A program made the position numbers and the translations under genes. The notes under the pieces were generated by a model, which was not told where the DNA came from, made no database searches, and saw nothing but the letters and a program-made list of their open reading frames with translations. From Kangiellaceae bacterium (GTDB taxonomy: Bacteria > Pseudomonadota > Gammaproteobacteria > Enterobacterales > Kangiellaceae): 64,000 nt of DNA. Below, piece after piece: positions 7,454 to 38,017 of this stretch; the first letter of the stretch is position 1, and every line of letters starts with the position of its first letter. The DNA lies in contig OZ246006.1 of assembly GCA_965230505.1 (NCBI GenBank), positions 3,453,752-3,517,751 on the forward strand, written 5' to 3'.

Positions 7454-7459
7454 GTTTAT

Positions 7460-7536: not shown

Positions 7537-7605
7537 AACATTCCAACATCACGAACCGAGGTGTGATGATACTTTTTGACGGTGGAAGTCCGTACTCGGT
7601 ATAGG

Positions 7606-7692: not shown

Positions 7693-7697
7693 TATTT

Positions 7698-8037
7698 AGC
7701 TCCGTGGTGTAGTTGGTAACACTCAAGATTTTGATTAGGTACTTGGTATGACTGGTTAACGTGATTTCAGAACAATGTTTTCAGGTTAGTGCGAGGCGTA
7801 TTGTGCAGGAAATGGTATTCCCTTTTCAAACGATACAACGAAGCAATAATTTGAAAAAAATTGTTCCCGAAGGGCGGTTCCAGAAATTGCAAGCTATGTT
7901 GTTGTACTCCCTTGAATTGGCTACGGCCAGTCCTGCGGTCGTACGCCTAATATCTTACAATTTCTTGATTCGCTGAAGTCACGTTAACCAGTCATACCAA
8001 GTACTTATCGTTGGTTCGAACCCAGCCAGAGCTGCCA
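7698..8037 (+). ncRNA. tRNA-like scaffold whose anticodon-arm position holds a ~270-nt insertion with 27-bp perfect terminal inverted repeats
   Basis: 5' part: acceptor AGCTCCG, D-arm GTGT-AGTTGGTA-ACAC, then CAAGA-TTTTGATTA. 3' part: T-arm GTTGG-TTCGAAC-CCAGC, acceptor CAGAGCT, G, CCA. Between them lie GGTACTTGGTATGACTGGTTAACGTGA and its exact reverse complement. Confidence 0.6.
7738..8007. mobile_element. MITE-like insertion (27-bp perfect TIRs, ~215-bp core, possible TTA duplication)
   Basis: TIRs at 7738-7764 and 7979-8005 are perfectly complementary. The 71-aa internal ORF has no recognisable features. Confidence 0.5.
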
Positions 8038-8536: not shown

Positions 8537-9115
8537 ATGCAAGCTCAGATCTTGCGACTTAACAAAGCTGGTCAAGCAATGGAGTGGATTAACTTTGAAT
8601 CCGCGGCTTGTTTGTACTCTAAAGATCAAGTGTTGTGGACATTTGGTAAAACTGCTGCACGTCTTAATGGTGGCCATTCGAGACTAACTGGACAACGGTC
8701 TTTTCTTGATATCGCTTCGGTAATCGCTACCGATGGTCAAATCCATCAACGCCATAGCCGTGTACCAGCTTTAAGCAACTACGCGTTATTCCAGCGAGAT
8801 GAGCATTTGTGTATGTATTGCGGAAAGCCTTTTAGTCGTTCAGAGTTAACTCGTGATCATGTTATTCCGCAGGCTCGAGGTGGAAAAAATACTTGGACCA
8901 ATTGTGTCGCGGCATGTAAGCCTTGTAATAATTTTAAGGGGTGTCGTACACCGGAAGAAGCTCACATGAGCCTAATAGCCATTCCATTCCGACCTAATAT
9001 TTCTGAGTACTTAGCTTTAGCGAATAGAAATATACTGGCCGATCAAATGGAGTTTTTGGTGAAAGGATTTTCAAATAATATGCTAGAAAAAGTAAAGCGT
9101 GAGAACAAAAAATAA
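8537..9115 (+). CDS. HNH endonuclease
   Basis: CMYCG...LTRDHVIPQARGG..W.N.VAAC..CN..KG zinc-finger/HNH signature. Good RBS (AAGGAG). Confidence 0.85.
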   Translation: MQAQILRLNKAGQAMEWINFESAACLYSKDQVLWTFGKTAARLNGGHSRLTGQRSFLDIASVIATDGQIHQRHSRVPALSNYALFQRDEHLCMYCGKPFSRSELTRDHVIPQARGGKNTWTNCVAACKPCNNFKGCRTPEEAHMSLIAIPFRPNISEYLALANRNILADQMEFLVKGFSNNMLEKVKRENKK

Positions 9116-14818: not shown

Positions 14819-16438
14819 TTAATCTTGATACTGGTACCCGATCTGTTCGAGAAGGTCTAATAGTTTTGCATTAAACTCCAAGTGCGCTTCACTACTTGAT
14901 TGACCAAACCAAGCAATCGTACGGATTTCCAGTGGGTCAATATTGTATGCCGCCGATCCCCAAAAACCACCATGACCGGTATAGTGATAGGTTTTGCCAC
15001 TACTTGAAGCAATATCAACGAACCCTAAGCCCAAACCATAAAAATCTCCGCTATCGTCTATTTTCCAGTTCTTCCATTCGTTAACAAGTGTTTCATCTTG
15101 TATGATTTCTTCATTCTCTATTGCCGCGAAAAAACGGTTGAGATCTGCTAGAGTCGACACCAAGCCCCCGCCAGCCCACGCAAAGGATGTGTTCATTTCA
15201 ATTTGAAGGATGTTGTGATTCGCATAGTAGTTTTCAGGTAAATCAGAACCAAAAATTTCTTCCGTCACGAATATTAAATGATCAACGGGTGTTGAATCGT
15301 TTGCTTGATGAAACTCCATATAGGTATTAGACATTTCCAGAGGTGTGAATAGATGAGTGTTCATCAAATTATGCAGGTTTTCGCTGGCGATTTTTTCCAT
15401 GATAATGGCGAGTAGGTCGGTGTTGCTATTGCCATAATGATGTCTCTCTCCCGGAAGAAACTCTAAGTCTTGAGTAAGCCCTCGATTGAGTATATCGCTC
15501 AGGATTAATTCGGGGGTCCATAGATTAGGTAGAGTATTATTTGGGTCACCATTTAACGCAGCGTCAAAAGATAATGTATCAGGTGCTTGGGCGTCACTCA
15601 AATAAGAAATAAAATCATTGATTCCACTAGATTGGTCCATCAGTTGACGTATTGTTATCTGGTCGCCCCGTTTTACACCATCTTTTACATGCAAGTCTGC
15701 CACTGTCCAGTCACCGGGTAAATCACTGTCGCTTAACAGCTCACCAATGGGGGTATCCAATTCGAAATGGCCGATTTCGATGAGTTTAAGGGCTAAGGCT
15801 ACGGTGACTGTTTTACTAATACTGGCTATTCGAAAAGGGGAGTCGACCGTCATCGGAATTTGAGAATTCTGTTGCTCTAAACCGCGTGCCGATGCCCACT
15901 TAAAATCCAGTCCGTCAAATTCGAGTGAAAAGGCCATATTGGCGGTGAGCGATTGATTGGCACTAAAAACATCATCAAGGATCTGTTCGAGTTGCGGGGA
16001 AAGGAATTCTGCAAGGGGTTGAACATCTATTGTAACGTCAGCGGTATCAGATAATCCGCCACTATCGGTGGCGACTAATTGAAATTGATATTCGCCTGTC
16101 GTTTTCGGTGCTAAGAACAGAAGATTGGCTGAACCGACCGGATCAATTAATAAAGTAACGTTCTCGGGGCCGCTAACTTGAGTCCATTGTGTCCGAGCTA
16201 GGTTATCATTTGGATCGGTAACGCTTGCCGCTAAACTTACTTGCGTGTTCTGATATCCTACCTTATTTGTTTGCGAAAGGTTGATGACTGGTGCAACGTT
16301 CTCCTCACTACCACCACCTCCACCACAGGAAATTAGCCCAATTAAAGATAGAGGGATGATTAATAATGCAATCGATTTATTTGTTGATAGCGTATTTATA
16401 AACTGGCGGGGCGAGCAAATTCTCATTTCTTCTCTCAC
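14819..16438 (-). CDS. Lipoprotein serine hydrolase, beta-lactamase family
   Basis: Lipobox LISCGGGG. N-terminal Ig-like domain. SISK (SxxK) and YGN motifs. Confidence 0.75.
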   Translation of the reverse strand: MREEMRICSPRQFINTLSTNKSIALLIIPLSLIGLISCGGGGGSEENVAPVINLSQTNKVGYQNTQVSLAASVTDPNDNLARTQWTQVSGPENVTLLIDPVGSANLLFLAPKTTGEYQFQLVATDSGGLSDTADVTIDVQPLAEFLSPQLEQILDDVFSANQSLTANMAFSLEFDGLDFKWASARGLEQQNSQIPMTVDSPFRIASISKTVTVALALKLIEIGHFELDTPIGELLSDSDLPGDWTVADLHVKDGVKRGDQITIRQLMDQSSGINDFISYLSDAQAPDTLSFDAALNGDPNNTLPNLWTPELILSDILNRGLTQDLEFLPGERHHYGNSNTDLLAIIMEKIASENLHNLMNTHLFTPLEMSNTYMEFHQANDSTPVDHLIFVTEEIFGSDLPENYYANHNILQIEMNTSFAWAGGGLVSTLADLNRFFAAIENEEIIQDETLVNEWKNWKIDDSGDFYGLGLGFVDIASSSGKTYHYTGHGGFWGSAAYNIDPLEIRTIAWFGQSSSEAHLEFNAKLLDLLEQIGYQYQD

Positions 16439-24174: not shown

Positions 24175-25344
24175 ATGGGCAATCACAATGGATTTAATAT
24201 CCAAACATTGTCTGCGAGCGTTAATTTAATCGCCAATGCAGACACTTGGATCGAAGGTAAAGCGATCCAACAATTACAAAAAACAGCAGAGTTAGAAGGG
24301 GTTGTTAAGGCAGCAGGTATGCCGGATCTACATCCAGGAAGAGGTTATCCAATTGGCGCTGCTTTTTTAACGAAAAACAAAATTTACCCCGCTCTTATCG
24401 GGAATGATATAGGCTGCGGTATGACTTTATGGGCCACTGATATTAAAGTTAGAAAGGTGAACCTTGATAAATTTGAGAAGCGTCTTGAAAGTATTGATGA
24501 GCCGTTAACTGCAGACTGGCAAGACTATATCTCTGAAAGATATCGAAATAAAGCGTTATCTTCCAGCGGGTTTGAAAGAGCGCTCGGGACAATAGGAGGA
24601 GGGAATCATTTTGCTGAGCTACAGCGGCTTGATCAAGTCATTGATGAAGCGATTGTTAGTGAACTAGAAATTGATAAGAAGCATTTAGTCTTGTTAGTTC
24701 ACAGTGGCTCTAGAGGATTAGGCGAGCGTATTTTAAGAGCACATGTTGATAGTTTTGGTCATGCAGGCTTAGCGACTAATAGCGATGAATGTAATCAATA
24801 CATTGAACAGCACAACATGGCGATTAAGTTTGCGGAAATTAATCGTGAGTTAATCGCAAAGCGAATGCTTGATAATTTGCATGCCAAAGGAAAGGTGCTT
24901 TTGGATGTCAATCATAACTTAGTGACTGAAAAAATGATCGATAATCAATCGCACTGGATCCACCGCAAGGGAGCGACCCCTGCTGATTGTGGCTTAGTGA
25001 TGATGCCAGGTTCGAGAGGGGATTATAGTTACTTAGTGCACCCGAATGTTGATGCAGAGCTTGGATTTGAAAGTCTCTATTCGCTAGCGCATGGCGCAGG
25101 ACGTAAATGGATGCGGACTGAATGCAAAGATCGATTGTCAAAACGGTATCGACAATCGGACTTAGAAAGAACCGCACTAGGTAGTCGTGTTATTTGTAAG
25201 AATAAGGCACTGATTTTTGAAGAAGCACCTGAGGCTTACAAGCCAATATCATCAGTGATAGCGGCTATGCAGGAAGCGGGCTTGATTAAATTGGTGGCAC
25301 GATTTAAACCTGTTTTAACGTATAAAACAAGCGGAGGCTGCTAA
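24175..25344 (+). CDS. rtcB: RtcB-family RNA ligase, release-factor-H-coupled type (RtcB2)
   Basis: Metal/GTP-site motifs DLHPGRG, GCGM, GGGNHF, HSGSRGLG, HGAGR. Stop overlaps the prfH start. Confidence 0.9.
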   Translation: MGNHNGFNIQTLSASVNLIANADTWIEGKAIQQLQKTAELEGVVKAAGMPDLHPGRGYPIGAAFLTKNKIYPALIGNDIGCGMTLWATDIKVRKVNLDKFEKRLESIDEPLTADWQDYISERYRNKALSSSGFERALGTIGGGNHFAELQRLDQVIDEAIVSELEIDKKHLVLLVHSGSRGLGERILRAHVDSFGHAGLATNSDECNQYIEQHNMAIKFAEINRELIAKRMLDNLHAKGKVLLDVNHNLVTEKMIDNQSHWIHRKGATPADCGLVMMPGSRGDYSYLVHPNVDAELGFESLYSLAHGAGRKWMRTECKDRLSKRYRQSDLERTALGSRVICKNKALIFEEAPEAYKPISSVIAAMQEAGLIKLVARFKPVLTYKTSGGC

Positions 25345-25988
25345 TGATTTTATTACAACTATCCGCTGGGCAAGGTCCTGCTGAGTGTTGCCTAGCAGTT
25401 GCCAAAGCCATGGTTTTATTAGAGAAAGAAGCAAAGAAGTTGGATGTTATTCTTAGTCTGGTAGAAGAGGTTAATGGCCTCGAACGAAGGACTACTAAGT
25501 CGGCATTATATCGCTTAGAGGGAAAGGCATCATCAGAGCTAGCGCAAAAATGGAGTGGAACAATGCAATGGGTTTGTCAAAGTCCTTATAGGCCAAAACA
25601 TAAAAGAAAGAACTGGTTCTTTACGGGTAGTTATAGTGAACATGCCGAGATGAATTTCTCTAAAGCGATCACCTATGAAGCTTGTCGCTCTTCTGGACCG
25701 GGTGGGCAACATGCTAACAAGACAAGTTCAGCTGTGCGAGCGACTCATCTTGATTCGGGTATTTCTGTCAAAGTTCAATCAGAACGCAGTCAGCATATGA
25801 ACAAGCGATTGGCGAAAGCTTTGATTGAAGTGAAATTGGCTGAAAGCCAAAGAGATTCGGAACAGATAGAAAAAGGCAATAGACATAAGTCTCATCATTC
25901 GATTGAGAGAGGAAATGCAATTAGAGTCTTTAAAGGACCCGATTTTCTAACTGTAGTCACTGATGAGGAACAACGAAATGAGGTATAG
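25344..25988 (+). CDS. prfH: Peptide chain release factor H
   Basis: MILLQLSAGQGPAECC N-terminus and SGPGGQHANKTSSAVRATHL GGQ motif. Close to E. coli PrfH. Confidence 0.9.
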   Translation: MILLQLSAGQGPAECCLAVAKAMVLLEKEAKKLDVILSLVEEVNGLERRTTKSALYRLEGKASSELAQKWSGTMQWVCQSPYRPKHKRKNWFFTGSYSEHAEMNFSKAITYEACRSSGPGGQHANKTSSAVRATHLDSGISVKVQSERSQHMNKRLAKALIEVKLAESQRDSEQIEKGNRHKSHHSIERGNAIRVFKGPDFLTVVTDEEQRNEV

Positions 25989-26358
25989 AAGAGTGACTCC
26001 TCAAGAAAAAAAGATTAGGGATTACCTATACCAAACGACTAATTGTTATGGGTATAACGACAAAAACTCTAGAATTGCTATTCGAAAGAATAAAGCATCG
26101 AACTCGCGTACTTATCGAAGAAAGGTTCAAGGTGAGTTAGGGAGAGTTTTTGATGATCTTGACATGGTCGAACATCAAATAGCATGTATTAGGAGGGGGA
26201 ATTGGAAAAAATTTCCTGACGAGTGTTTATTAAAGTCATTTGAACATAAGTGGTCTGATAACAGTCGTACTTGTCATCTTGAAGATGATAAACGAACACT
26301 ACAAAATGAAGCGTTAAAACGGCTTAATAAGATTAAGACTCGTGAGTATTGGTATTAA
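25963..26358 (+). CDS. Hypothetical basic 131-aa protein
   Basis: ORF overlaps the prfH 3' end by 26 nt. Lys/Arg-rich. No family recognised. Confidence 0.35.
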   Translation: MRNNEMRYRRVTPQEKKIRDYLYQTTNCYGYNDKNSRIAIRKNKASNSRTYRRKVQGELGRVFDDLDMVEHQIACIRRGNWKKFPDECLLKSFEHKWSDNSRTCHLEDDKRTLQNEALKRLNKIKTREYWY

Positions 26359-26528
26359 TTTTTTAAACTACTGTTATAGCTTTTTGGATAACGAATAAAA
26401 CAGGAGAATGAAAGTAGTACTTTCAGCAATGAGTATGTAATACCTAGCAAAACAACAATAAGGAAGTATAAGGGACTCTACTTCAATTAAGAAGAGTCTG
26501 TCACAATGCATTTAAAAGGAGTAGGACT

Positions 26529-27242
26529 ATGAATACTCAAGTGAAAAATAGGCGATTTAAATATCCGAGGACCATGCATTTACCATGGTCTCCGGGATTT
26601 ACAGACGATGATGTAAAAGGAGCAAGTTCAGAAATCTTTAATGGTCGAGAGGTTGTCATCACGGAAAAAATGGACGGTGAGAATACGACGTTATATAACG
26701 ATCATACTCATGCTCGTTCAATCGATAGTCGTCATCACCCATCTAGAGATTGGCTAAAGCGATGGCATGCAGAGTTCGCACATGAAATTCCATCCGGTTG
26801 GAGAATTTGCGGAGAGAATCTTTATGCGCAGCATTCAATTGTTTATGACAAGTTAGAAAGTTATTTTTATGGCTTCTCGATATGGAATGACAAAAATTAT
26901 TGCCTTAGTTGGGATGAAACCTTGGATTGGTTTCGTTTGCTCGAAATTACAACGCCAAAGGTGATCTATCGAGGGCTTTGGGATGAAAAACTTGTCCGTA
27001 GCATCAAGTTAGATACAGATGTCGTAGAAGGTTATGTTGTGCGGCTAGCCGAGCAATTTGATTTTGATAGTTTTAACTCTAGCGTTGCCAAATGGGTAAG
27101 AAAAGGACATGTACAAACGGATAAACACTGGATGCATGCAGAGCTGAAGCTAAATGGTTTAGCTGAAGTTAAATTCGAACACCAACTTGAGCCGTATAAA
27201 GCGACAATAGAAAATAAGGAGGTATCGAATGAAACCAAATAA
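26529..27242 (+). CDS. ATP-dependent RNA ligase (RNA_ligase/Rnl-type nucleotidyltransferase)
   Basis: YPRTMHLPWSPG N-terminal motif and KMDGEN (KxDG lysine-adenylylation motif I). Confidence 0.7.
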   Translation: MNTQVKNRRFKYPRTMHLPWSPGFTDDDVKGASSEIFNGREVVITEKMDGENTTLYNDHTHARSIDSRHHPSRDWLKRWHAEFAHEIPSGWRICGENLYAQHSIVYDKLESYFYGFSIWNDKNYCLSWDETLDWFRLLEITTPKVIYRGLWDEKLVRSIKLDTDVVEGYVVRLAEQFDFDSFNSSVAKWVRKGHVQTDKHWMHAELKLNGLAEVKFEHQLEPYKATIENKEVSNETK

Positions 27243-28497
27243 AAACAAAAAAGTAAATGCTTGGTTAAACGAGTTAGCCTCCAAGGCTAAACCTGATGTT
27301 AACGAATGCATTGAATACTTGGGCGAGAACTTTGAGTGGCTATACGAACTCAAAAATACACCTCAAGATCCTGAGTGGCACGCTGAAGGAAACGTACACA
27401 TCCACACAGATATGGTGCTCGCAAAGCTTTACAATTTGCTGGATAACGAAGCTTCTCATCTTAACGGCAAGCAACGACAAGCATTGATACTGGGCGCGCT
27501 TTTCCATGATATAGCTAAACCTATGCGGACGAAGAAAATAGAGATTAACGACGTTTTGCGAGTGGTTAGCCCACAACATGAATCAGTTGGTCGCTCCTAT
27601 CTAGCCTTTAAGCTAATGGAGTTGGAGCTTGAATTTGATGTAGTTTGGAATGTCTTAGGTTTAGTTGGAGAGCACCATATGCCAAAGTTGTTGGCTGTTA
27701 GAAACAAGGCAAAGGGTGATTACCTTGCTCTATCTCGGCGAGCAAACCTCGAACTCTTGTATTGGTTAGAAACCGCGGATATGAAAGGCCGAAGTTGCCC
27801 CGATTTGCCTTTGCAGCTACAACATTTGGCGGAATTTAAAATGTTTGCTGAAGAATATGGTGTTTGGAATAAACCCCATGAACTTGAGCAGGATTTTCTC
27901 AAGCTAGTTGAAGCTGAGAGTGACTCCATGGCGAGCTATATTCAGGCGTATGCTGTGTCAGAGTTAGAAAGTGGTGTTATTTCTCTACCCATTGAGGCGG
28001 TCGCTCGCACATTTGAATATAGGGAAAGCTATTCGAACTTGGTAGTCATTTGTGGTCCGAGTGGTTCAGGAAAAACCACTTGGATAGGAAATAACTGTGC
28101 AGACCATGTGCTGATTTCTCTTGACGATATAAGAGAAGAAATCAACGGAGATCGTAGAAGCCAGAAAAACAAGGGAAAGGTCATTCACCTTGCTCGAGAC
28201 CGACTGAAGCAGGCCTTGCGGAATAAACAAGATGTCGTTTGGGATGCGACTAATCTGCGCTCAGATTTCAGAAAAATCATTTGTGATCTCGGGCGTGATT
28301 ATCATGCCTTAGTCACCATTGTTTTGTTTATGTTGCCGGAGTCAATTATTTACCAAAATAATCGAAATCGAGAGTATGCGGTTCCGGAAGATGTATTGCT
28401 TAAGCAGTTTGAAGATTTTCAGTTTCCGTTAGTCAATGAGGCGCATTATTTTCAGATTGTTGGTGAGAAGGGGGAACTGCTTTTTTCGAACGAATAA
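27229..28497 (+). CDS. HD-domain phosphohydrolase fused to P-loop polynucleotide kinase (Pnkp-like RNA end-healing enzyme)
   Basis: HD motif (H...LFHDIAKP) in the N-terminal half. GPSGSGKTT Walker A and kinase-like C-terminal half. Start overlaps the ligase gene. Confidence 0.7.
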   Translation: MKPNKNKKVNAWLNELASKAKPDVNECIEYLGENFEWLYELKNTPQDPEWHAEGNVHIHTDMVLAKLYNLLDNEASHLNGKQRQALILGALFHDIAKPMRTKKIEINDVLRVVSPQHESVGRSYLAFKLMELELEFDVVWNVLGLVGEHHMPKLLAVRNKAKGDYLALSRRANLELLYWLETADMKGRSCPDLPLQLQHLAEFKMFAEEYGVWNKPHELEQDFLKLVEAESDSMASYIQAYAVSELESGVISLPIEAVARTFEYRESYSNLVVICGPSGSGKTTWIGNNCADHVLISLDDIREEINGDRRSQKNKGKVIHLARDRLKQALRNKQDVVWDATNLRSDFRKIICDLGRDYHALVTIVLFMLPESIIYQNNRNREYAVPEDVLLKQFEDFQFPLVNEAHYFQIVGEKGELLFSNE

Positions 28498-28593
28498 AGA
28501 CTATTACAAGGATTAGACCATGAGATATCGTTTAATTTTAAAAGAAAAGGGATTTGTTATCCATTAGTTAAATTCAACTAATGGAGAACAAAA

Positions 28594-28797
28594 ATGAAAT
28601 GTAATTATTTTCGCTACCCCAATAGCACCAATGAAATGCGACAGTTCTATGCGTCTAATGACAATGAACTAGGAATCCGTATTAAAGTTCGAGGAAGAAG
28701 AAGGCCTAAAAGGTTACCGAATTCTTGGGATGATATTAATTCAGAGAATCAACGGTGCTGGAAGACTCGGCGCAAAAATCAATGGAAAGTCACTTAG
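28594..28797 (+). CDS. Small basic hypothetical protein (67 aa)
   Basis: GGAG RBS 8 nt upstream. No similarity recognised. Confidence 0.3.
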   Translation: MKCNYFRYPNSTNEMRQFYASNDNELGIRIKVRGRRRPKRLPNSWDDINSENQRCWKTRRKNQWKVT

Positions 28798-28988
28798 AAC
28801 TAGTTCTGGTGACTTTCTATTAATTAAATCTCAGATGACGGACGATTCTAATTTATGGCAACCCGATACGGTGATTGAATCAAAGACCATTGTATCTGCT
28901 AGATAGTGCATTGTCGGGTATCGCTACAAGCTCAACACCGACCTACTTTGAGTCGACTTGTGTTTCTAGGATAATGGGCCGCCCAAAA

Positions 28989-29762
28989 TTAGAGCACCCG
29001 ATGAAATAACTCATTCAACTCCTCAAAGTCGAAACTTCTCCCCAATTCAGTGCCACTATAATCTTCAAGCCTTTCAAGCTGAGAGGTAATAAACTGATTA
29101 ATAACAGGTACCGCCGGCGCAATCTCTTTTTCCATGGCTTGCTTTTTTCGCTCGATCAAATCGGTAATTGCTAAATCAAGTTCGGAACCTGTCTCAAGCA
29201 TTTGCCTGAGAGTATCAAACTCAATGGGTGCTGGCGTACGATACTTCTCCATCCACAAGATCGAGAGCAACGGTCTTAAAACGTAAAAATATTTCTTAAG
29301 TGGAACCATTGGTTTACGCAAATATCCTCTATAGTTGGTTTTAGCCATACTTCGATAATGGTATATCCCTTTATTAATCGAGTAGCTCGACGCCAGCATT
29401 TTCCTAGCAGACTCAGCGAATACTCCGTCGTCTCGATAGACAATAGATGAGTGCAGCCATTCAACAAATGAAGGGTTGGATTTTTTGAACAGCCTTAATG
29501 CTTTGCGAACATCCCATCCGCTGATATCTATTTCATCGACAATCGGGTATTCGATAACGTCGCGTTTCTCCTCGAGATCAACAGCGACATACCAATCTTT
29601 GGGATGGGCATAGATAAACCTGACATCATAGTCACTGTTAGGTGAAGCAAACCCCCAGGCTCTACTGCCTGATTCGACAGCGTAGAGGACTTTTACATTG
29701 TGCTCTTGTTCTGCAGCATCGATTCTTCGTTGAATTTCTTGTTCTATTTCTTTTGGTATCAT
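28989..29762 (-). CDS. RlaP-type (pol-beta superfamily) nucleotidyltransferase
   Basis: GSRAWGFASPNSDYDVRFIY nucleotidyltransferase core, typical of the RNA-repair-associated PF10127-like family. Confidence 0.65.
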   Translation of the reverse strand: MIPKEIEQEIQRRIDAAEQEHNVKVLYAVESGSRAWGFASPNSDYDVRFIYAHPKDWYVAVDLEEKRDVIEYPIVDEIDISGWDVRKALRLFKKSNPSFVEWLHSSIVYRDDGVFAESARKMLASSYSINKGIYHYRSMAKTNYRGYLRKPMVPLKKYFYVLRPLLSILWMEKYRTPAPIEFDTLRQMLETGSELDLAITDLIERKKQAMEKEIAPAVPVINQFITSQLERLEDYSGTELGRSFDFEELNELFHRVL

Positions 29763-29795
29763 GGTAATACTTCTTTGTTATTCGTTCTATTCAGT

Positions 29796-30767
29796 TTATT
29801 CGTTTATTTGCTTGGTGACCAACCGGTTCTTATCCAAGTGATATCTATCAAGATCATTAGCCAACCAAAGGTTACCCCTAAAATATTGCTTAGCTTCGTT
29901 TTCAACCTCGTCAATAGAATCGGATTTATCACTGTCAGGCTGATAGCGCGCACTGAAGTGAGTAAGAATCAAATTCTTAATACCCGATTGCTCCGCAAAT
30001 TGAGCGACTCTCTTAGCGCAACTGTGTTGTGGTCCTGAACCTACTTTTTCTGAAACAGCGCTAGTGTAGGTCGACTCATGAACCAATAGGTCCGCTTCTT
30101 TTGCCGCTTGCGCTAAAAGGTCTGGGGTATCATTATCACCACCGATAACGATCTTTCTCGCTCTCTCTAATGGTAAATAGCAATCGGTGGCTTGGATTTC
30201 TTGTCCATTGTCTAGCGTAATTGACTGACCACTTTGAAGCTGACCCCATAAAGGTCCTCGTTCAATACTCAGTTTTTGTAACTTATCAACATCCAATCGA
30301 TTTGAGCGATTATTCTCAGTGAAGCTATAAGCAAAACTCGGCACTCGATGAGAGAGTTCAATCGCTTCGATTTTAAATTCCTTATCCTTATCATATAAAC
30401 CAAGTGATTCCGCAGAAACAAACACTATCGAGTAATTTAAGTATGTATCGGTTAGCTTAAACGTTGATGTAACGAATTCTTCGATACCTTTTGGCGCAAT
30501 AATAGTTAATGGCTCAGTGCGACCTGTCATTGCGGTAGTTGCTAGTAGTCCCGGTAATCCGTAACAATGGTCACCATGCACATGAGTAATGCATATTGTC
30601 TTTAAGTTTTTTAAAGACAGTTTTGTATGCAATAGTTGATGTTGCGTGCCTTCGCCACAATCGATTAGGGTCCATGATTTGCTGTCTTGTTTTTTTAATG
30701 CAAGACCGCTGACATTTCGGGATTTTGTTGGGACTCCGGAGGAGGTTCCTAAGAATGTGATTTCCAT
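29796..30767 (-). CDS. rnz: Ribonuclease Z / BN (tRNA 3' endonuclease, metallo-beta-lactamase fold)
   Basis: FLGTSSGVPT..RNV, DCGEGTQHQLLHT, HVHGDH..GLPGLL. Near-collinear with E. coli RNase BN. Confidence 0.85.
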   Translation of the reverse strand: MEITFLGTSSGVPTKSRNVSGLALKKQDSKSWTLIDCGEGTQHQLLHTKLSLKNLKTICITHVHGDHCYGLPGLLATTAMTGRTEPLTIIAPKGIEEFVTSTFKLTDTYLNYSIVFVSAESLGLYDKDKEFKIEAIELSHRVPSFAYSFTENNRSNRLDVDKLQKLSIERGPLWGQLQSGQSITLDNGQEIQATDCYLPLERARKIVIGGDNDTPDLLAQAAKEADLLVHESTYTSAVSEKVGSGPQHSCAKRVAQFAEQSGIKNLILTHFSARYQPDSDKSDSIDEVENEAKQYFRGNLWLANDLDRYHLDKNRLVTKQINE

Positions 30768-30948
30768 ATTGTTCTATCTTTTTGAGTTATAAATTAAATT
30801 TTAAGTTCAAAAGCGTTTCGCATCGCTTTGCTTGTATGCGACCTACTTTTGCCAAGAGCTGCAAAAATAGGCAAAAGAGCCCTCGTTTCAGCGAACTAGA
30901 ACAGTGCTTGTTGCAAGTTTTAACAAAATTTCCACATCTAGCTTGTTG

Positions 30949-31388
30949 TAAGCGAATCAAAGGGAAGAGAAAAACTCGCTGCGCTCAAACAATTCTCTTC
31001 CTATTCTTTGATTCATTCATTTCAGGTTGCCGTTCACAAGCACTAGGCAGAAAGGCATGATTTCCTAGCTCCCTTCGACTCTGCTCAGGACACCGCGCTT
31101 CGACTCCGCTCAGGGCAACGCCCAGCACATTTTTTAACTTTTGACCTTCGCCCAGTGCCTACGAACGAGACATTGAAACTCATGAATTCAAAGGTCAGAA
31201 GGAGAGTTGTTTGAGCACCGCGAGTTCTCTCCTTCCTTTGAATTCACTTTCAACAAGTTCCTAGACTGAAATCATGTTTTAGCTTTCAAAGTTCTCCAGA
31301 CTAGTTCGTTTAACGTGAAGCGCTTTTGCATACTTTTGGGGCTTAAGCCAAAAGTTTGTCGCAGTCAGAGCGCAGCGCTGCGAAACGC
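30949..31388. repeat. ~440-bp structured repeat, copy A
   Basis: About 80% identical to 34484-34888. Contains two mutually inverted long hairpins and a palindromic stem CTTTTGG..CCAAAAG. Confidence 0.85.
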
Positions 31389-31427
31389 CCTTAAAAAAGA
31401 AAGCGGGAAATCCCTTTCCCACTCCCA

Positions 31428-32573
31428 TCATCTCTCTGCAATCTTAACCATATCCTTCATAACTCCCTCCAATCCATTGTAAACAGTCATTTGGTCAATC
31501 TTACCAGTAATTCGTTCCAATACCTCTAATTCCTTTAGACGCATTAGAGTTGCATTGCCTTCCATTACCTTTGCCGTGTTATGCAATGAGCGTGTCGCCT
31601 GAGTTTCTTCGCGACGTTTAATTAAGTTAGCTTCGGCACATTTTTGTGCTTCAACCACTTGATTTAAAATGCTCTTCATATCACCTGGCAAGATAATGTC
31701 TTTCACACCGACATCCAATACTTGTAGTCCGTAGGTGAGGGCTTTTTCCTTGATCTGCTTTTCTACTACTTGATTCACAATATCCTTGTCTTGCAATATA
31801 GCATCAAGTGTTCGAGTACCAACTACTTCTCTTAATGCCAGTTGAAATTCTCGATACAAGAATTCAGAATGGTTCTTAAGCAAAGTAGCAACTTTTTCAG
31901 TTTCAGCAATTTTGTAACTTGCAGACAAGTTAACACGCAAACTAACTCGATCTTTGGTCAGTATTTCTTGACCGCTGACTTCCATGGTTTGCAAGCGACA
32001 ATCCAATCGAGTGACCTCGATATTTCGATTGAAACGCCAGTATCCATAGTTGCCTGGTTGCAAAAGGCTTTCAAGCTTTCCGTTAACTTTCAAAAGCCCA
32101 ACATGGTTATCTGGGACTTCGATGTAGTAGATTGCACTCACGCCGGCGCTATAAATGGTACTTACTTTATTGCGGACTAGTGCAGCAAGTAATTTTCCAT
32201 CAACTTGAAAGCGATCCTCTATATCAAGAATCTTAACTTCGACTTTGACTGCCAAATTCCAGTACATTTTAAACGTGTTTGGTGCAAGTATATCTACCAG
32301 CTTATCGTCAAAATAAACGACACCAACTTGATTTTCCTTAATATCAAAACTAATAACTTGCTCGCCTAAGTGCTCACCGTAAGCGGTTATCAAGAAGCGT
32401 CCCAAGTGGTGATTCAATTCCGCTTTAGTAATATCATAGCGAAACAGGGTCACCGCGCCGGATAAATCAAACACTCGATGTTGGCCTGGTTCGAGTATTT
32501 TTTCAAATCTGTTTTTTCTAAATGCCAATACACGTTCGTTATCAGCCACATTAATTATTTTCATTCCTAGCAT
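31428..32573 (-). CDS. SPFH/band-7 (slipin-like) domain protein
   Basis: C-terminal 200 aa show the SPFH pattern (TKDRVSLRVNLS...LREVVGTRTLDAIL...GLQVLDVGVKDIILP). Confidence 0.7.
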   Translation of the reverse strand: MLGMKIINVADNERVLAFRKNRFEKILEPGQHRVFDLSGAVTLFRYDITKAELNHHLGRFLITAYGEHLGEQVISFDIKENQVGVVYFDDKLVDILAPNTFKMYWNLAVKVEVKILDIEDRFQVDGKLLAALVRNKVSTIYSAGVSAIYYIEVPDNHVGLLKVNGKLESLLQPGNYGYWRFNRNIEVTRLDCRLQTMEVSGQEILTKDRVSLRVNLSASYKIAETEKVATLLKNHSEFLYREFQLALREVVGTRTLDAILQDKDIVNQVVEKQIKEKALTYGLQVLDVGVKDIILPGDMKSILNQVVEAQKCAEANLIKRREETQATRSLHNTAKVMEGNATLMRLKELEVLERITGKIDQMTVYNGLEGVMKDMVKIAER

Positions 32574-32969
32574 CTTCGTTCTCCTTATCTAATCTACAAC
32601 GATGCTTGTCTGTTGTTCTTCCTAATAAGTCGGCTTCCTGCAACTAGCTTGTAATGACTACTTAGGAATACTGGGAAATGAACTGAGAGGAGAGTAACTT
32701 AGTTGCATTAAGCATTAGTTTTATTTCCCCAACGAGGTTGTAAAAACTAAACGAATACAAGTCCGTTGCTCTCATCAGTTTACTTCGCGGCAAGCCAACC
32801 CATAGTGATTGGTCGATAGTTGCGGTGGAGCAATTTTTAGAGTTAAATCAATGTTGCTGATTAACTCCGCTACTCGCTGCACAGAAGCCTGGGTGTTTCT
32901 CTGAGGAGTCGAACCTCAACCTTTCGGTTTACCGGCTATTTTTTAAAAATAGAATCGATTTTCAGTCGA

Positions 32970-33046
32970 TGGTTACTTAGGTCGGAATCGAACCGACTAC
33001 CTATAGAGTAAATATCTATTGCTCTACCCAAATGAGCTACAAAGTA
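32970..33046 (-). ncRNA. tRNA-Lys(TTT)-like gene with A33 and one acceptor mismatch, located inside the rtc operon
   Basis: On the minus strand: TACTTTG acceptor, GCTC-ATTTGGGTA-GAGC D-arm, ATAGA-TATTTAC-TCTAT anticodon arm, GTCGG-TTCGATT-CCGAC T-arm, CTAAGTA-A-CCA. Confidence 0.5.
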
Positions 33047-33226
33047 GTGGTGTCTAGAATTAATAATCAAACTTGGTATACAGAAAGGTATGCCCGCTGC
33101 ACCAGACTGACCCGAGTGTTTATCCTCAGCAATCAGAGCTGCTAAATTTGTCATTATTTCCTAAACGCTTTTGGAAAAGCAGAATGACTATTCTGACTTT
33201 TCGCATTCTTTTTTAAATTTGTGATC

Positions 33227-34264
33227 TCAAGATTTTAGTCCCGTGATTACCACTTTCACTGTGTCTTCATCTATTTCGGTCACGCTAATGGCGTTGTCAA
33301 TAAATCGATTGATCACATCTATATTCGTTGTTACATGCTCGCTCATAGAATGAGTAATAAAGCTTCCGCCTTTACTTAAGACCATTGGCAACAATAGCTG
33401 ATCGGCTAAATGTTCACCAACCACAGCTTTTGAATTAAGAAATCGATTCAATTTTTTAATCGCTTTACCAGCGACTCGCTCAGCAGTGACTCCTTTTTGT
33501 GCCACTTCATCAAATAATTCTGTCGTATTCTCAAACTCTAAGCTCAATGAAATTAAGTTGCCGGGACCAAATGCCTCGACTTCTTTTTCAAGTAGCTCTT
33601 CAGAACTCCAATTCAATTTTTGAACAACTTTTTTCAACTCTCTTTGACTCACCGACATTGGGATCTTTGAAGTAAAAGTTGTGGCGTTCCTTGCCACTAG
33701 ATCACCTCTATCTAACATTTTTAACCTTCTTGTTTCTTTTTTCGGCTTAATGATTGCTGTCCACTGACCACCACCATTAGGGTAGAAACCATATCTGTCT
33801 AGCTTGCAGTCAACCCTATGTCCAATCTTACTAATCGCTTTATTAAAGCTCTTAGTAATAAACTCATAACTAGGCGCTTGCATATTGTGAGTACCGCCTT
33901 CCAAACTCACAGATGATTCTCCTTCAGCTTGAAGTAATGCTGGTAAGATGGTTTGGAAAACCAAACTAGTACTACCTGCCGTACCGATAGCAAATCGATA
34001 CTCCCCACATTTTATTTTCCCTGGAGCGAAGTCGATATAACTTGATTTAAGTTCATCACCCTCGACCTGAGCATCACAGATTGTTTTAGCTGCTCGAACG
34101 CAGGTTAAGTGCTGGCGGAGTAGCCCTGGTTTTTTTCTTCCTGCTCGAATGTTTTCAATTCGAATGGGAGTTTGTAAACACATTGATAGAGAGAGGGAAG
34201 TGCGGAGGATTTGTCCACCGCCTTCGCCTTGGCTGCCATCAATAGTGATTTTTTGCTTATTCAT
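33227..34264 (-). CDS. rtcA: RNA 3'-terminal phosphate cyclase
   Basis: IDGSQGEGGGQILRTSLSLS and near-collinearity with E. coli RtcA. Confidence 0.9.
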   Translation of the reverse strand: MNKQKITIDGSQGEGGGQILRTSLSLSMCLQTPIRIENIRAGRKKPGLLRQHLTCVRAAKTICDAQVEGDELKSSYIDFAPGKIKCGEYRFAIGTAGSTSLVFQTILPALLQAEGESSVSLEGGTHNMQAPSYEFITKSFNKAISKIGHRVDCKLDRYGFYPNGGGQWTAIIKPKKETRRLKMLDRGDLVARNATTFTSKIPMSVSQRELKKVVQKLNWSSEELLEKEVEAFGPGNLISLSLEFENTTELFDEVAQKGVTAERVAGKAIKKLNRFLNSKAVVGEHLADQLLLPMVLSKGGSFITHSMSEHVTTNIDVINRFIDNAISVTEIDEDTVKVVITGLKS

Positions 34265-34483
34265 TTCATTCTCGTCAATTTTTATTTAAGTGCCTATTTC
34301 GCAGCGCTGCGCTCCGACTGCGGCAGTTTTTTGCTCCTGCAAAAACTGCATACCGGTCATCCGTGACCATAACTTACTTTTGCCCAAAGCGGCGAAAGTA
34401 ACCAAAAGCGCTTTCCGTTTCAGCGAACTAGTTATTTACTTGTTGTTAGTTCACCTATTATTTTTACGGCTTTACTTGCTGTG

Positions 34484-34888
34484 AGCGAATCTAAGGGAAG
34501 AAAAAAACTCGCTGCGCTCAAACAATTCTCTTCCTATTCTTTGATTCGTTCATTCCACATTGCCGTTCACAAGCACTCGGCAGGAATGCGATACCTCCTA
34601 TCTCCTATCTCCTATCTCCTAGCTCCATCTGTTCTTTTATCTTCCGCCCAGTGCCTACGAACGACACATTGAAACTCATGAATTCAAAGAACAGAAGGAG
34701 AGCTGCCTGAGCACCGCGAGTTCTCTCCTTCCTTTGAATTCACTTACAGCAAGTTCCGTCACGGAAATTGGGTATGTACTCTAAGCAAATTCGAATCAAG
34801 TTCGTTTTAACGTGAAGCGTTTTTGGCTACTTTTGCCGCTTAGGGCAAAAGTGACTCGCATGCAAGCGCAGCGATGCGAAACGCCTTT
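34484..34888. repeat. ~440-bp structured repeat, copy B (contains a (CTCCTAT)x4 microsatellite at 34596-34623)
   Basis: Homologous to 30949-31388. The palindromic stem shows a compensatory change (CTTTTGC..GCAAAAG versus CTTTTGG..CCAAAAG). Confidence 0.85.
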
Positions 34889-34930
34889 GATCTTCAAAGC
34901 TGTTTAAATCAGCTAAAAAGCTGACCCAAA

Positions 34931-36181
34931 CTACCCCTTAACACATACAACCTGCTTCAAAGTATGTACTACTTCAACCAAATCACTCTGTGCTTCCATG
35001 ACCTTATCAATATCCTTATAAGCTGATGGTGTCTCGTCAATCACATCCTTATCTTTTCGACATTCAACACCTTTGGTTGCTTGCAAATGTTCTTCCATTG
35101 AAACCACTTTTTTAGCTTGGGTTCTTGACATCACTCGCCCTGCGCCATGACTACAACTACAAAAGCTATCTTGGTTTCCGAGTCCCCTAACTATGAAGGA
35201 TCTTGCTCCCATACTTCCGGGAATAATCCCCATCTCACCCTCCCTGGCTCTCACTGCTCCTTTCCTCGTCACAATGACATTCTTACCAAAGTGATGCTCC
35301 CTTGAGATGTAGTTATGATGACAGTTCACCGCTTCTAAACTTGCCTCAAACTCAAAGCTCAAACTTGATTTAACTGCGGCAATCACTCTTTGCATCATCA
35401 CCTCTCTGTTAGTTCTTGCGAAGTTTTGAGCCCACTCAACAGCTTCTACATAATCGTTAAAGTGGTCGCTTCCTTCAGGCAAATAGGCCAAATCTTTATC
35501 CGGCAAGTTGATATGCCAACGTTGCATATCTTTTTTAGCCTGTTCGATAAAGTGAGTTCCAATTCTGTTTCCCACACCTCTCGAACCGCTATGTAACATA
35601 AACCAAACTTGATTTTTTTGGTCTAAGCAGACTTCGATAAAATGGTTTCCAGTTCCCAATGTTCCTAAGTGTGCTACGTTGTTAGTGTTCTTTAACACAG
35701 CGTGTTTTTCACATAATCGATCAAAATCTGGCGACAGGTTTTTCCATGCTCCAATAACATCAGCCGGTAAATCATTCCATGAGCCTTTATCTCTTCCTCG
35801 TCTCGCTCGAGCTGAACGTCCATGTGGTACTGCTGCCTCAATGGCGGTTCTAATCGCAAACAAATTGTCAGGTAGTTGACTAGCATTCATCGACGTTTTA
35901 ACGGCCATCATTCCGCAGCCGATATCAACACCAACCGCCGCTGGAATAACCGCACCTAATGTTGGCACTACGCTTCCAATCGTCGCACCTTTACCAAGGT
36001 GAACGTCCGGCATAGCAGCGACCCATTTATGGATAAAAGGCAGAGAAGCAATATTCTTCAACTGTTGTCTGGCTTTATCTTCAAACGGTACACCTTTGGT
36101 CCAAGACTTAATCGGTACACCGGTTGATTGCATGACTTCGTAGTTTGCCGGAGTTGCTTTTGTTTCAGTATTAATTTCCAT
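34931..36181 (-). CDS. rtcB: RtcB RNA ligase (canonical)
   Basis: HLGKGATIGSV, GVDIGCGM, GTGNHFIE, HSGSRGVGN, CSHGAGR. 416 aa. Confidence 0.95.
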   Translation of the reverse strand: MEINTETKATPANYEVMQSTGVPIKSWTKGVPFEDKARQQLKNIASLPFIHKWVAAMPDVHLGKGATIGSVVPTLGAVIPAAVGVDIGCGMMAVKTSMNASQLPDNLFAIRTAIEAAVPHGRSARARRGRDKGSWNDLPADVIGAWKNLSPDFDRLCEKHAVLKNTNNVAHLGTLGTGNHFIEVCLDQKNQVWFMLHSGSRGVGNRIGTHFIEQAKKDMQRWHINLPDKDLAYLPEGSDHFNDYVEAVEWAQNFARTNREVMMQRVIAAVKSSLSFEFEASLEAVNCHHNYISREHHFGKNVIVTRKGAVRAREGEMGIIPGSMGARSFIVRGLGNQDSFCSCSHGAGRVMSRTQAKKVVSMEEHLQATKGVECRKDKDVIDETPSAYKDIDKVMEAQSDLVEVVHTLKQVVCVKG

Positions 36182-36240
36182 TTTGTTCTCTTTTCTTATC
36201 TTCTAAAGCTAATAACTCGATTTAATTGACAACCTAACAT

Positions 36241-36258
36241 AGCGAGCAGCGTGCCAAC
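36241..36258 (-). promoter_or_regulatory. Sigma-54 promoter for rtcB (TGGCAC-N5-TCGCT on minus strand)
   Basis: The reverse complement of 36241-36257 reads TTGGCACGCTGCTCGCT. The GG and GC elements sit at consensus spacing, about 60 nt upstream of the rtcB ATG. Confidence 0.6.
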
Positions 36259-36363
36259 TTTTTTAATTTTAAAATAAAATCCTCTAACTTGCTGTTATAT
36301 AAAGGTTTTAAATCTTTTGCAGAAATTCGATAGTCTCAAAAGTGATATCAGTTTATTTTGATA

Positions 36364-36400
36364 AATATCGAAAAAGATAATAAAATATCGTAAAAGATAT
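36364..36400. promoter_or_regulatory. Two 17-bp direct repeats (AAATATCG[A/T]AAAAGATA), candidate RtcR binding sites
   Basis: Tandem near-identical repeats 3 bp apart. They sit between the sigma-54 promoter and the divergent rtcR start. Confidence 0.35.
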
Positions 36401-36421
36401 CAGGTTGCCGGTAGGAATAAA

Positions 36422-38017
36422 ATGAAAACCACTGTAATTAGTATTTTAGGGACTAATTTAGATAGAAGAGGGCGTAATGCAATACGTTGGGACAAGTGGC
36501 GACCCAATATCGCCTTGTGTCAGCAGGAAGATTTGATTGTCGACAAATTGGTGTTATTACATGAGCCAAATTTTGAAAAATTAGCGGTTCAAGTTAAGGA
36601 TGATATTAAGGTAGTCTCGCCGGAAACAGAAGTGGTGTTTTATTCGGTGGATTTTTCCAGTCCTTGGGATTTTGAGTCGGTTTATAGTCAGCTTTATGAT
36701 TTTAGTCAGAAGCATCAATTTAATACAGAGCAAGAAGAGCTCTTGATCCATATCACTACCGGCACTCATGTTGCTCAAATTTGTTTGTATCTGCTTACTG
36801 AAACTCATTACCTGCCAGGTAAGCTTTTTCAAACATCGCCTGGTAATAAAGACAATCCGACCGCAGGTAATTATCAAATCATTGATTTGGACTTATCTAA
36901 ATATGATCAAATTGCATCGCGCTTCAACCAAGAAAGATTGACTGGCGCTGACTTTTTGAAATCTGGAATTGAAACAAGAAATATCAAGTTCAACAAGATG
37001 ATACAGCAAATCGAAAAGGTTTCTCTACTCTCTAAAGAGCCGATGTTAATTACCGGTGAAACCGGCGCGGGTAAAACTCGACTGGTAAAACGTATTTATG
37101 AATTAAAACAAAAACGAGGACAAGTCACGGGTAAGTTTGTGGTAGTCAATTGCGCCACTTTAATCGGCGATAAAGCAATGTCAGCATTATTTGGGCATAG
37201 TAAAGGTGCTTTTACTGGCGCATTAAATGCTAGGAATGGCTTATTAAAGGAAGCGGATGGTGGTTTATTATTTCTGGATGAAATTGCAGAGTTAGGTCTT
37301 GATGAGCAAGCAATGTTGTTAAAGGCTATAGAGGAAAAAAGCTATCTGCCCTTGGGAGCTGACAGTGAAGTAAAAAGTAACTTTCAATTGATCGCCGGAA
37401 CCAACCACAATATCAATGAGACCGTTGCCAAAGGAGGGTTTAGAGAGGATTTATTAGCTAGAATTAACCTTTGGAGCTATCAGTTACCATCACTCAAAGA
37501 CCGAATAGAAGACTTAGAACCTAACTTAGACTTTGAACTTAGACAGTTTGCCAAAAAAGCCGGTCACATGGTTAGCTTCAACAAAGCTGCACGAACTCTT
37601 TATTTGAACTTCGCCAAATCACCAGAAGCACTTTGGAGTGCAAATTTTAGAGATTTAAACTCCAGTGTGACTCGAATGGCGACCTTATCGGAAGGAGGGA
37701 GAATTTCGGAAAACGAAGTTAAAGAGGAAATTATTAGATTAAAACAGCAATGGCTAGGGCAGGTTAGAATTGCCGAGGAACCCGAGCAAACTGCAATTGA
37801 TATACTTGGGGCTAACCGAGCCAAAGAGTTAGACAATTTGGAAAAATATACTTTAGTAGGGGTTCAAAGCATTTGTCGCCAATCCAACTCAATGGCAGAA
37901 GCCGGTAGAAAGTTATTCAATGTTTCTCGTTTAGAAAAGAAGTCGAAAAATGATTCTCATCGTTTGAAGCAGTTGTTGACCAAGTACGGTTTGACTTTTG
38001 AAGAGCTGAAGAGCTGA
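36422..38017 (+). CDS. rtcR: Sigma-54-dependent transcriptional regulator RtcR
   Basis: N-terminal CARF-like domain (LVLLHEP...ITTGTHVAQIC). AAA+ sigma-54 activator core (GETGAGKT, GAFTGA). C-terminal HTH. Collinear with E. coli RtcR. Confidence 0.9.
   Translation: MKTTVISILGTNLDRRGRNAIRWDKWRPNIALCQQEDLIVDKLVLLHEPNFEKLAVQVKDDIKVVSPETEVVFYSVDFSSPWDFESVYSQLYDFSQKHQFNTEQEELLIHITTGTHVAQICLYLLTETHYLPGKLFQTSPGNKDNPTAGNYQIIDLDLSKYDQIASRFNQERLTGADFLKSGIETRNIKFNKMIQQIEKVSLLSKEPMLITGETGAGKTRLVKRIYELKQKRGQVTGKFVVVNCATLIGDKAMSALFGHSKGAFTGALNARNGLLKEADGGLLFLDEIAELGLDEQAMLLKAIEEKSYLPLGADSEVKSNFQLIAGTNHNINETVAKGGFREDLLARINLWSYQLPSLKDRIEDLEPNLDFELRQFAKKAGHMVSFNKAARTLYLNFAKSPEALWSANFRDLNSSVTRMATLSEGGRISENEVKEEIIRLKQQWLGQVRIAEEPEQTAIDILGANRAKELDNLEKYTLVGVQSICRQSNSMAEAGRKLFNVSRLEKKSKNDSHRLKQLLTKYGLTFEELKS

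Follow-up and report, generated by a model that had tools for sequence, protein, structure and literature searches.

The 64,000-nucleotide stretch of Kangiellaceae DNA analysed here (contig OZ246006.1, positions 3,453,752 to 3,517,751; called the window below) carries an RNA-repair locus in which the gene for an SPFH/Band-7 protein follows the RNA ligase gene rtcB and the RNA 3'-phosphate cyclase gene rtcA. In the gap ahead of the SPFH gene lies a tRNA-like module that, judged by comparative alignment, is the core of a larger conserved RNA of ~540 nucleotides (nt) with covariation support. The reading that we favour, with moderate confidence, is that the locus belongs to the Band-7/b7a-tRNA type of RtcR-controlled RtcB/RtcA operons, and that the two long repeats in its other gaps are foldback insertions resembling miniature inverted-repeat transposable elements (MITEs). 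The layout of SPFH gene and tRNA-like RNA is already in the literature, and this locus is a further example of it; compared with the b7a-tRNA as described in bioRxiv 10.1101/312249, the ~540-nt extent and the covariation support are new.

The genes run on the minus strand, divergently from rtcR, in the order rtcB, a 666-nt gap, rtcA, a 653-nt gap, SPFH, a 660-nt gap, rnz and rlaP. A first-pass annotation, made from the letters of the window, had proposed this order on one strand for rtcB, rtcA, SPFH and rnz, and Pfam or NCBIfam models back all of these identities:

36422-38017, plus strand: rtcR, divergent from rtcB (Pfam RtcR 2.5e-78, N-terminal and CARF-like; Sigma54_activat 1.3e-46)
36241-36256, minus strand: sigma-54-like promoter TGGCACGCTGCTCGCT, 60 nt upstream of rtcB
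34931-36181, minus strand: rtcB, RNA ligase (Pfam RtcB 3.5e-133)
33227-34264, minus strand: rtcA, RNA 3'-phosphate cyclase (Pfam RTC 2.9e-77)
31428-32573, minus strand: SPFH/Band-7 gene, slipin family (Pfam Band_7 3.3e-29)
29796-30767, minus strand: rnz, RNase Z (NCBIfam TIGR02651 310.6 bits, cut-off 292.95)
28989-29762, minus strand: rlaP, nucleotidyltransferase of RNA-repair systems (Pfam RlaP 3.2e-84)

Judged from these genes, rtcB and rtcA form a predicted same-strand operon that would be RtcR-controlled, in a gammaproteobacterium of the family Kangiellaceae. The candidate promoter TGGCACGCTGCTCGCT has one mismatch to the consensus TGGCAC-N5-TTGCW; matches of this quality number three in the window where 1.9 would be expected, so that only the position of this one speaks for it. 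In the SPFH protein the SPFH domain occupies residues 152-323, and the N-terminal 150 residues match no Pfam family. The protein has no hydrophobic segment (maximum Kyte-Doolittle 19-residue mean 1.04). Its SPFH domain resembles those of stomatin and HflK (with stomatin matches in the PDB), both of which form large cage-like oligomers. The nearest homologues are "slipin family" proteins of Kangiellaceae, mainly of Aliikangiella, and more than 7000 relatives were found.

A large structured RNA ahead of the SPFH gene

We compared the neighbourhoods of SPFH genes (loci are given L numbers) from Kangiellaceae, comprising Aliikangiella genomes and metagenomic contigs (L001-L004, L067-L076), and from Microbulbifer (L080), Marinobacterium (L081) and four gammaproteobacterial contigs (L079, L082-L084). 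In all 17 loci the SPFH gene is preceded by a gap free of open reading frames (ORFs) that holds a tRNA-like gene on the same strand; this gap is 580-830 nt long in the 11 loci measured. ARAGORN called the tRNA-like gene in each of the 14 loci scanned, and in the other three it is visible in the alignment. The remaining neighbours vary and include rtcB-rtcA, rtcB alone, RlaP, HNH genes and tRNA arrays. RtcB/RtcA adjoin in most loci, and the SPFH gene also stands beside a repair ligase in L004, L067, L069, L071, L072, L076, L080, L081 and L083. Since the neighbours change while the RNA and the SPFH gene stay, the invariant unit is the RNA plus SPFH.

The conserved part of the gap extends well beyond the tRNA-like gene, as conserved blocks from ~33174 to 32632 were found in 17 loci, and the ~540-nt RNA recurs in the Microbulbifer, Marinobacterium and metagenomic loci. 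Its parts in the window are as follows:

32632-33174, minus strand: large structured RNA (extended b7a RNA), ~540 nt, directly upstream of the SPFH gene
33052-33166, minus strand: 5' domain, a long-range helix GUUUAGG/UCUAGAC enclosing four inner helices
32970-33046, minus strand: tRNA-like module (ARAGORN; Rfam tRNA model 56.7 bits at 32973-33046)
32902-32929, minus strand: short hairpin AACCGAAAGGUU, then a second T-arm-like hairpin UGAGG-UUCGACU-CCUCA (helices 11 and 12)
32632-32889, minus strand: 3' domain, with closing helix GGCUUCU/AGGAAGCC; its end lies ~58 nt ahead of the SPFH start codon

For the first 300 nt, a consensus of 16 sequences contains 12 helices, arranged from 5' to 3' as the long-range-helix domain, the cloverleaf, a hairpin, and the short hairpin with the T-arm-like hairpin GGGGUUCGACUCCCC. 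Across the 64 pairs of this consensus 94.6% of alignment cells pair normally, against 29-43% when the partners are slid by 1-3 columns; compensatory changes are seen in 33 pairs, against 8-12 in the slid controls, and the covariation score is 0.389 against at most 0.097. None of 500 shuffles matched any of these observed measures. The 5' domain (helices 1-5) is 83-98% paired, with compensatory changes in 19 of its 31 pairs, and helices 11 and 12 are kept across families, again with covariation. In the 3' domain, 16 of 42 predicted pairs show compensatory changes among 10 Kangiellaceae sequences. An Rfam scan of the ~540-nt RNA returned no family but tRNA. In size and helix count, and in its tRNA-related context, the RNA resembles OLE, ROOL and GOLLD, but it matches none of them in sequence or by model, and the analogy is one of scale only.

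These comparisons also bear on what the first-pass annotation had read in this gap. The T-arm-like hairpin TGAGG-TTCGACT-CCTCA is indeed in the gap, at 32902-32918, and is kept in most relatives across families. On the other hand, the pairing that the comparative alignment predicts does not include the long terminal stem of TGCAACTA with TAGTTGCA. The suggestion of Y-RNA-like DNA found no counterpart among covariance models, as neither Y_RNA nor YrlA gave a match at E <= 5 in 30700-35000; the sole YrlA match in the window is sub-threshold (24.6 bits) and falls within a tRNA array.

Read as a tRNA, the module at 32970-33046 would be a tRNA-Lys(UUU) with A33; its acceptor stem is AU-rich and contains one U-U mismatch, and an ACCA end is encoded. 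The earlier description of a tRNA-Lys-like gene with A33 thus holds, given the ARAGORN and Rfam calls and the A at position 33. Overlapping the gene is a 72-residue ORF (32936-33154) that matches no family. Among the orthologous modules the acceptor, D and T arms are constant, U33 is frequently missing, and the anticodon varies: across loci it reads Lys, Met, Asn (GUU and AUU), Ile, stop (UUA), Leu, Gln, Thr (AGU), Ser (ACU) or Phe (AAA), and in one locus it is unassignable. Because the anticodon differs in most relatives and U33 is often absent, the module is, as far as its sequence tells, non-decoding.

That it is instead an ordinary decoding tRNA-Lys gene lying by chance in the operon is a view to which we give next to no weight. 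The ARAGORN and Rfam calls and the encoded CCA end are what one would expect of such a gene, but A33 is not, nor are ten other anticodon readings at the orthologous site, including a stop-codon reader and the one unassignable loop. The acceptor pair that is U-U in the window is non-standard in half of the relatives, and a canonical tRNA-Lys(UUU) of other sequence is encoded separately at 7460-7536. A different alternative, compatible with the preferred reading of the remaining locus, is that the module serves as a decoy or sentinel for anticodon nucleases rather than as a passive scaffold. Cleavage in its variable anticodon loop would leave a 5' half that bears a cyclic phosphate and feeds RtcR activation, or the loop would soak up the toxin. 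A fast-changing anticodon loop on a fixed tRNA body is consistent with this, as is the linkage of tRNA arrays and HNH genes to this island, and array tRNAs have been suggested to act as sponges (PMC8421152). The argument is nevertheless purely inferential; a simple decoy leaves over the large conserved flanking domains of the 540-nt RNA, and the three closest relatives keep a stable loop sequence. We consider it unlikely that decoying is what the module does.

Two foldback repeats in the other gaps

The rtcB-rtcA and SPFH-rnz gaps are each nearly filled by one copy of a repeat of ~585-590 nt, delimited by direct-repeat and self-complement alignment:

~34296-34886, minus strand: foldback repeat copy B, rtcB-rtcA gap
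34323-34371, minus strand: 49-nt two-hairpin mini-element inside the right terminal repeat of copy B
31399-31426, minus strand: intrinsic-terminator-like hairpin with T-run right after the SPFH stop codon (from a consensus scan only)
~30809-31392, minus strand: foldback repeat copy A, SPFH-rnz gap

The first-pass annotation had described two direct repeats of ~440 bp here; they are real, although the limits given were too narrow. Three collinear blocks (30942-31072 against 34475-34605, 87%; 31138-31272 against 34634-34768, 88%; 31309-31392 against 34806-34888) align at 82-92% identity. Each copy is a quasi-palindrome that aligns with its own reverse complement over ~590 nt (65-67% over 486-607 nt), with terminal inverted repeats of ~80-90 nt, each carrying a small hairpin. 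Both of the finer features that had been reported are also present: the 21-bp hairpins form an inverted pair, and a small palindrome has changed in a compensatory way from one copy to the other. Each copy has two 21-bp hairpins whose 20-nt loops are mutually complementary, and a variable microsatellite centre (GGAGAT in copy B). The predicted RNA fold of copy A is a single rod with an energy of -255.8 kcal/mol (z = -14.4 relative to shuffled sequences), and RNAalifold on the five available copies gives 180 pairs, 13 of them with compensatory changes. Sense-strand G-U mismatches exceed A-C mismatches by 131 to 93, a weak excess among five related and non-independent copies. Neither repeat carries an ORF with a family match, and none gave an Rfam 15 or ribozyme match at E <= 5.

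The 49-nt mini-element in copy B is ~74% similar to units of tandem arrays at 3642-4119 and is inverted relative to those at 3642-3813. In copy B of L067 (~3720-3770) the mini-element is inverted and stands at the mirror-image site in the left terminal repeat; the two lineages acquired this insertion independently. The tandem arrays at 3642-4119, upstream of the tRNA array of the window, consist of two-hairpin units of 49 nt and 100 nt, and a further unit (7026-7078) interrupts a tRNA-like gene at 7002-7122. Within the DNA examined, such units were confined to tRNA-array regions and copy B.

Both repeat copies are found in L067 at the same sites and in the same orientation; copy A is 90.5% identical between the window and L067 by BLAST and 89.6% in a global alignment. 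L007 has copy B, and its contig stops inside rtcA before the site of copy A. The SPFH protein of L067 is 95% identical to that of the window, and L067 and L007, at 97.7% identity to each other, are probably one species. The repeats are missing from six more distant relatives with the same genes (L004, L069, L071, L072, L073 and L076), in which the rtcB-rtcA gap measures 113-343 nt. In two of them (L071 3890-4165; L073 ~190-480) this gap holds a different conserved RNA of ~280 nt, which finishes with a T-arm, an acceptor strand and CCA and gives a weak match to the 3' end of transfer-messenger RNA (E = 2.6e-4, below the gathering score).

To see where else the hairpin module occurs, a 20-mer of its loop was searched in one genome per species, and was found at 62 loci (L005-L066) against ~1 expected by chance. 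Many of these come from a few Desulfobacula/Desulfobacteraceae genomes and several from individual Clostridia genomes, with single matches in Neisseria, in an Ectothiorhodospiraceae metagenome-assembled genome and in Bacteroides. The one match in Kangiellaceae is the orthologous copy B of the sister species (L007). In most loci the 24-nt loop AATTGTTTGAGCGCAGCGAGTTTT sits on stems of unrelated sequence, the stems of Desulfobacterota, Neisseria and Kangiellaceae being wholly different. The loop motif of Clostridia and Bacteroides ends in GTAAC and lies between short tandem repeats, and in Desulfobacula the loop is part of ~240-nt units with sharp borders. Several genomes carry the hairpins in multiple copies. 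Relative to the flanking genes, 11 and 8 units are co-directional, 9 divergent and 4 convergent, with 26 of the 62 at locus ends. Being intergenic, without strand preference and without a recurrent neighbour, the loop-bearing units behave as dispersed DNA repeats. Searches by tblastn with seven repair proteins placed none of them beside the loop-bearing repeats, and clustering of neighbouring ORFs at the 62 loci returned only sigma-54 and response-regulator-type genes common in the taxa and spurious ORFs over the repeat itself. Rfam 15 had no match in 16 loci with the same hairpin loop, a plasmid search with the repeat gave no match, and the only literature found for the loop motif concerns cloning-vector sequence. 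Tn3-family inverted repeats (ACGTTAA motif) and an integration host factor site in the loop were considered by eye and dropped, the arms sharing the motif inconsistently in the one case and the match being partial in the other.

In these properties the repeats resemble foldback MITEs and the REP (repetitive extragenic palindromic), BIME (bacterial interspersed mosaic), ERIC (enterobacterial repetitive intergenic consensus) and Correia elements. They are non-coding, have terminal inverted repeats, form hairpins, lie between operon genes, are absent from the orthologous sites of relatives, and are modular and invaded by smaller palindromic units.

Several results weigh against reading them as plain insertions. 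They differ from such elements in being very large (~590 nt) and in having two detected copies, both in one operon. In 318 kb of related DNA, profile searches with four modules gave matches at the rtc locus only, and the sister-species genome has one match to the loop 20-mer only; so far as this DNA shows, "ordinary genome-wide MITEs" would not describe them in this lineage, where they appear to be conserved, low-copy foldback elements. No target-site duplication is recognisable at the borders, and the gaps of the relatives hold unrelated sequence with no clean empty site. The repeats also diverge more slowly than neighbouring synonymous sites. Between the window and L067, the divergence K is 0.11 for copy A, compared with four-fold-site values of 0.30 for SPFH and 0.19 for rnz, and 0.19 for copy B, compared with 0.75 for rtcB and 0.41 for rtcA; copy B of L007 and L067 differs by K = 0.04 against four-fold values of 0.09-0.13. 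Even the gap with the structured b7a RNA, at K = 0.28 (against the 0.41 of rtcA and the 0.30 of SPFH), is less well conserved than the repeats. Such slow divergence points to constraint rather than neutral decay. Finally, copy A may lie outside the rtcB-to-SPFH transcript, because the terminator-like hairpin stands between the SPFH gene and the repeat.

With slow divergence, and with no further copy in the DNA searched, a cis-acting role for the repeats is possible. It may be, although we think it somewhat unlikely, that they began as foldback insertions and have since been co-opted as cis-acting RNA or DNA structures under purifying selection, setting transcript boundaries, stability or the relative expression of rtcB, rtcA-SPFH and rnz-rlaP. 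Two independent comparisons, in which the repeats diverge at 0.25-0.6 of the four-fold rate of the flanking genes, would fit this account, as would the retention by two species of both copies with site and orientation unchanged, their apparently low copy number, their very stable fold and the compensatory changes in 13 of 180 pairs. Yet six relatives manage the same gene set without the repeats, the sense-strand G-U bias is not clear, and the comparison covers two species only. The neutral yardstick is itself unsure: the four-fold rate varies six-fold along the locus, from 1.21 in rtcR and the 0.75 of rtcB through the 0.19 of rnz to 0.57 in RlaP (window against L067), and this drop and rise along the island suggests recombination between two lineages.

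The first-pass annotation had suggested a variant Rtc system with other non-coding RNA (ncRNA) partners; on that proposal the repeats would be stand-alone structured ncRNAs acting as partners, substrates or baits of the Rtc/SPFH machinery. Their confinement to the rtc locus in the DNA searched and their conservation above the synonymous rate are in line with such a role, and the tRNA-like RNA in the rtcB-rtcA gap of L071 and L073 indicates that this slot does host RNAs. We give the proposal little credence, however, as the repeats match no Rfam family and show no ribozyme motif, their hairpin module is strand-indifferent dispersed DNA without any link to repair genes in other phyla, most relatives lack them, and copy A lies past the terminator-like site. 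The repeats are either a textbook mobile palindrome that has settled in an operon, or a small case of co-option.

The surrounding RNA-repair island

Together with the following genes, the rtc locus forms an RNA-repair island of ~14 kb with three ligases:

24175-25344, plus strand: RtcB2, of an RtcB2-PrfH pair
25344-25988, plus strand: PrfH, partner of RtcB2
26529-27242, plus strand: RNA_ligase-family protein
27229-28497, plus strand: protein with HD and P-loop kinase domains

The window also has a long tRNA gene array at 4758-8037, followed by an HNH endonuclease gene at 8537-9115. In relatives (L001, L070, L072-L074, L076, L077 and L079) the array either separates SPFH from rnz or, with HNH alongside, closely precedes the b7a RNA; this placement indicates that the array belongs to the same island. 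Arrays of this kind (L-arrays), HNH and rtcB are linked in cyanobacteria as well (PMC8421152). The arrays of that report and the one in the window are alike in their association with HNH, and in relatives the array stands inside or beside the rtc-SPFH island, whereas in the window it lies 25 kb from the rtc locus and several of its tRNA genes have structured insertions.

Two such genes, tRNA-Leu(UAG) at 4860-5032 and tRNA-Pro(UGG) at 6822-6978, each carry an ~80-nt insertion of four hairpins at the same T-loop position, after TTCGA/TTCAA, with the cloverleaves otherwise intact. The tRNA-Leu(UAG) gene of L073 (3982-4149) has the same insertion with compensatory changes, and L003 (~14890-15050) has a hybrid gene. 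We found no report of these T-loop insertions in array tRNA-Leu and tRNA-Pro genes in the literature. The genes share an island with RtcB, RNase Z and RlaP. Another tRNA-like gene, at 7699-8037, has an insertion of ~270 nt near the anticodon arm that is bounded by 35-nt inverted repeats (94% complementary) and matched no group I intron model. Ahead of the array, at ~4330-4620, are a conserved promoter-like sequence, a small ORF and the motif CGCTTCCTTATTTGGAAGC; the same set occurs downstream of the SPFH gene and before the arrays in L072, L073, L074, L076 and L077, and its three elements look like a shared array leader.

A proposed working of the locus

The pairing of the ~540-nt RNA with SPFH has close precedents. 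Burroughs and Aravind predicted in 2016 a Band-7 protein with a b7a-tRNA beside RtcB, and the b7a-tRNA was proposed to be functionally redundant with YrlA, and in 2018 it was described as lacking experimental validation (bioRxiv 10.1101/312249). The rtc locus of Pseudomonas aeruginosa PA14 likewise contains an SPFH gene, PaFlo8 (PMC13086221). As the Band-7/b7a-tRNA modules are set out in that preprint, our locus shares with them a soluble SPFH protein encoded beside RtcB/RtcA under RtcR, a near-canonical tRNA-like gene immediately upstream of the SPFH gene, and RlaP and other repair enzymes nearby; it differs from them in that the tRNA-like gene is embedded in a multi-domain RNA of ~540 nt and in having two foldback repeats in the gaps.

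A wider likeness is to the rsr-yrlBA-rtcBA operon of Salmonella, which also combines RtcR-controlled RtcBA with a ring- or cage-forming, RNA-binding scaffold protein (there Ro60/Rsr) and a tRNA-mimicking ncRNA (there the Y RNAs YrlA and YrlB). In our locus, however, the scanned ORFs included no Ro60/TROVE gene and no YrlA model matched, the RNA follows rtcA rather than preceding rtcB, and the tRNA mimic is a full cloverleaf. The absence of a Ro60/Rsr gene had been noted before, and the ORFs scanned at 24175-38017 indeed belong to other families or to none. The accompanying idea of a variant Rtc system stands in one part, with SPFH and the tRNA-like RNA in the place of Ro60 and YrlA, and fails to find support in the other, which made the repeats RNA partners as well.

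How such a system might work can be sketched as follows. RtcB joins RNA ends with a cyclic phosphate or a 3'-phosphate to 5'-OH ends. 5' tRNA halves terminating in a 2',3'-cyclic phosphate activate RtcR, and RtcA turns 3'-phosphate ends into cyclic phosphate (PMC7790460). Activated RtcR would drive the sigma-54 promoter ahead of rtcB, and the ~540-nt RNA would be made as the leader of the SPFH message. The RNA and a soluble SPFH oligomer could then take the part of Ro60 and YrlA, forming a scaffold or tRNA-shaped adaptor on which broken tRNAs are kept in place while their ends are healed and ligated. The repeats would lie outside this core system, having entered the rtcB-rtcA and SPFH-rnz gaps as paralogous foldback insertions built of palindromic modules in an ancestor shared with the sister species. 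If transcribed, they would form long imperfect hairpins and be at most RNase III targets or exonuclease barriers, a kind of punctuation that may be likened to REP/BIME, ERIC and Correia elements.

A bolder version would have three large structured RNAs working with the repair proteins. In it the ~540-nt RNA would stand for a new class of ornate ncRNA and make up, with the soluble SPFH oligomer, a Ro- or vault-like tRNA-repair particle, the two ~590-nt rods are under selection and are excised as substrates, baits or regulators, and the insertions in the array tRNAs and in copy B share the same cut-and-ligate biology. We regard this as improbable, and return to the more modest reading of an RtcR-controlled RtcB/RtcA operon of the Band-7/b7a-tRNA type that has taken up two foldback insertions.

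The Band-7/b7a-tRNA branch has been predicted since 2016, and we found no experimental test of it in the literature. The locus and its relatives now offer a target with ~100 comparatively supported base pairs, a tRNA mimic that is apparently non-decoding, and a constant coupling to SPFH. This would make it testable what the tRNA-like RNAs of Rtc operons do, whether they act as scaffolds, decoys or sensors.

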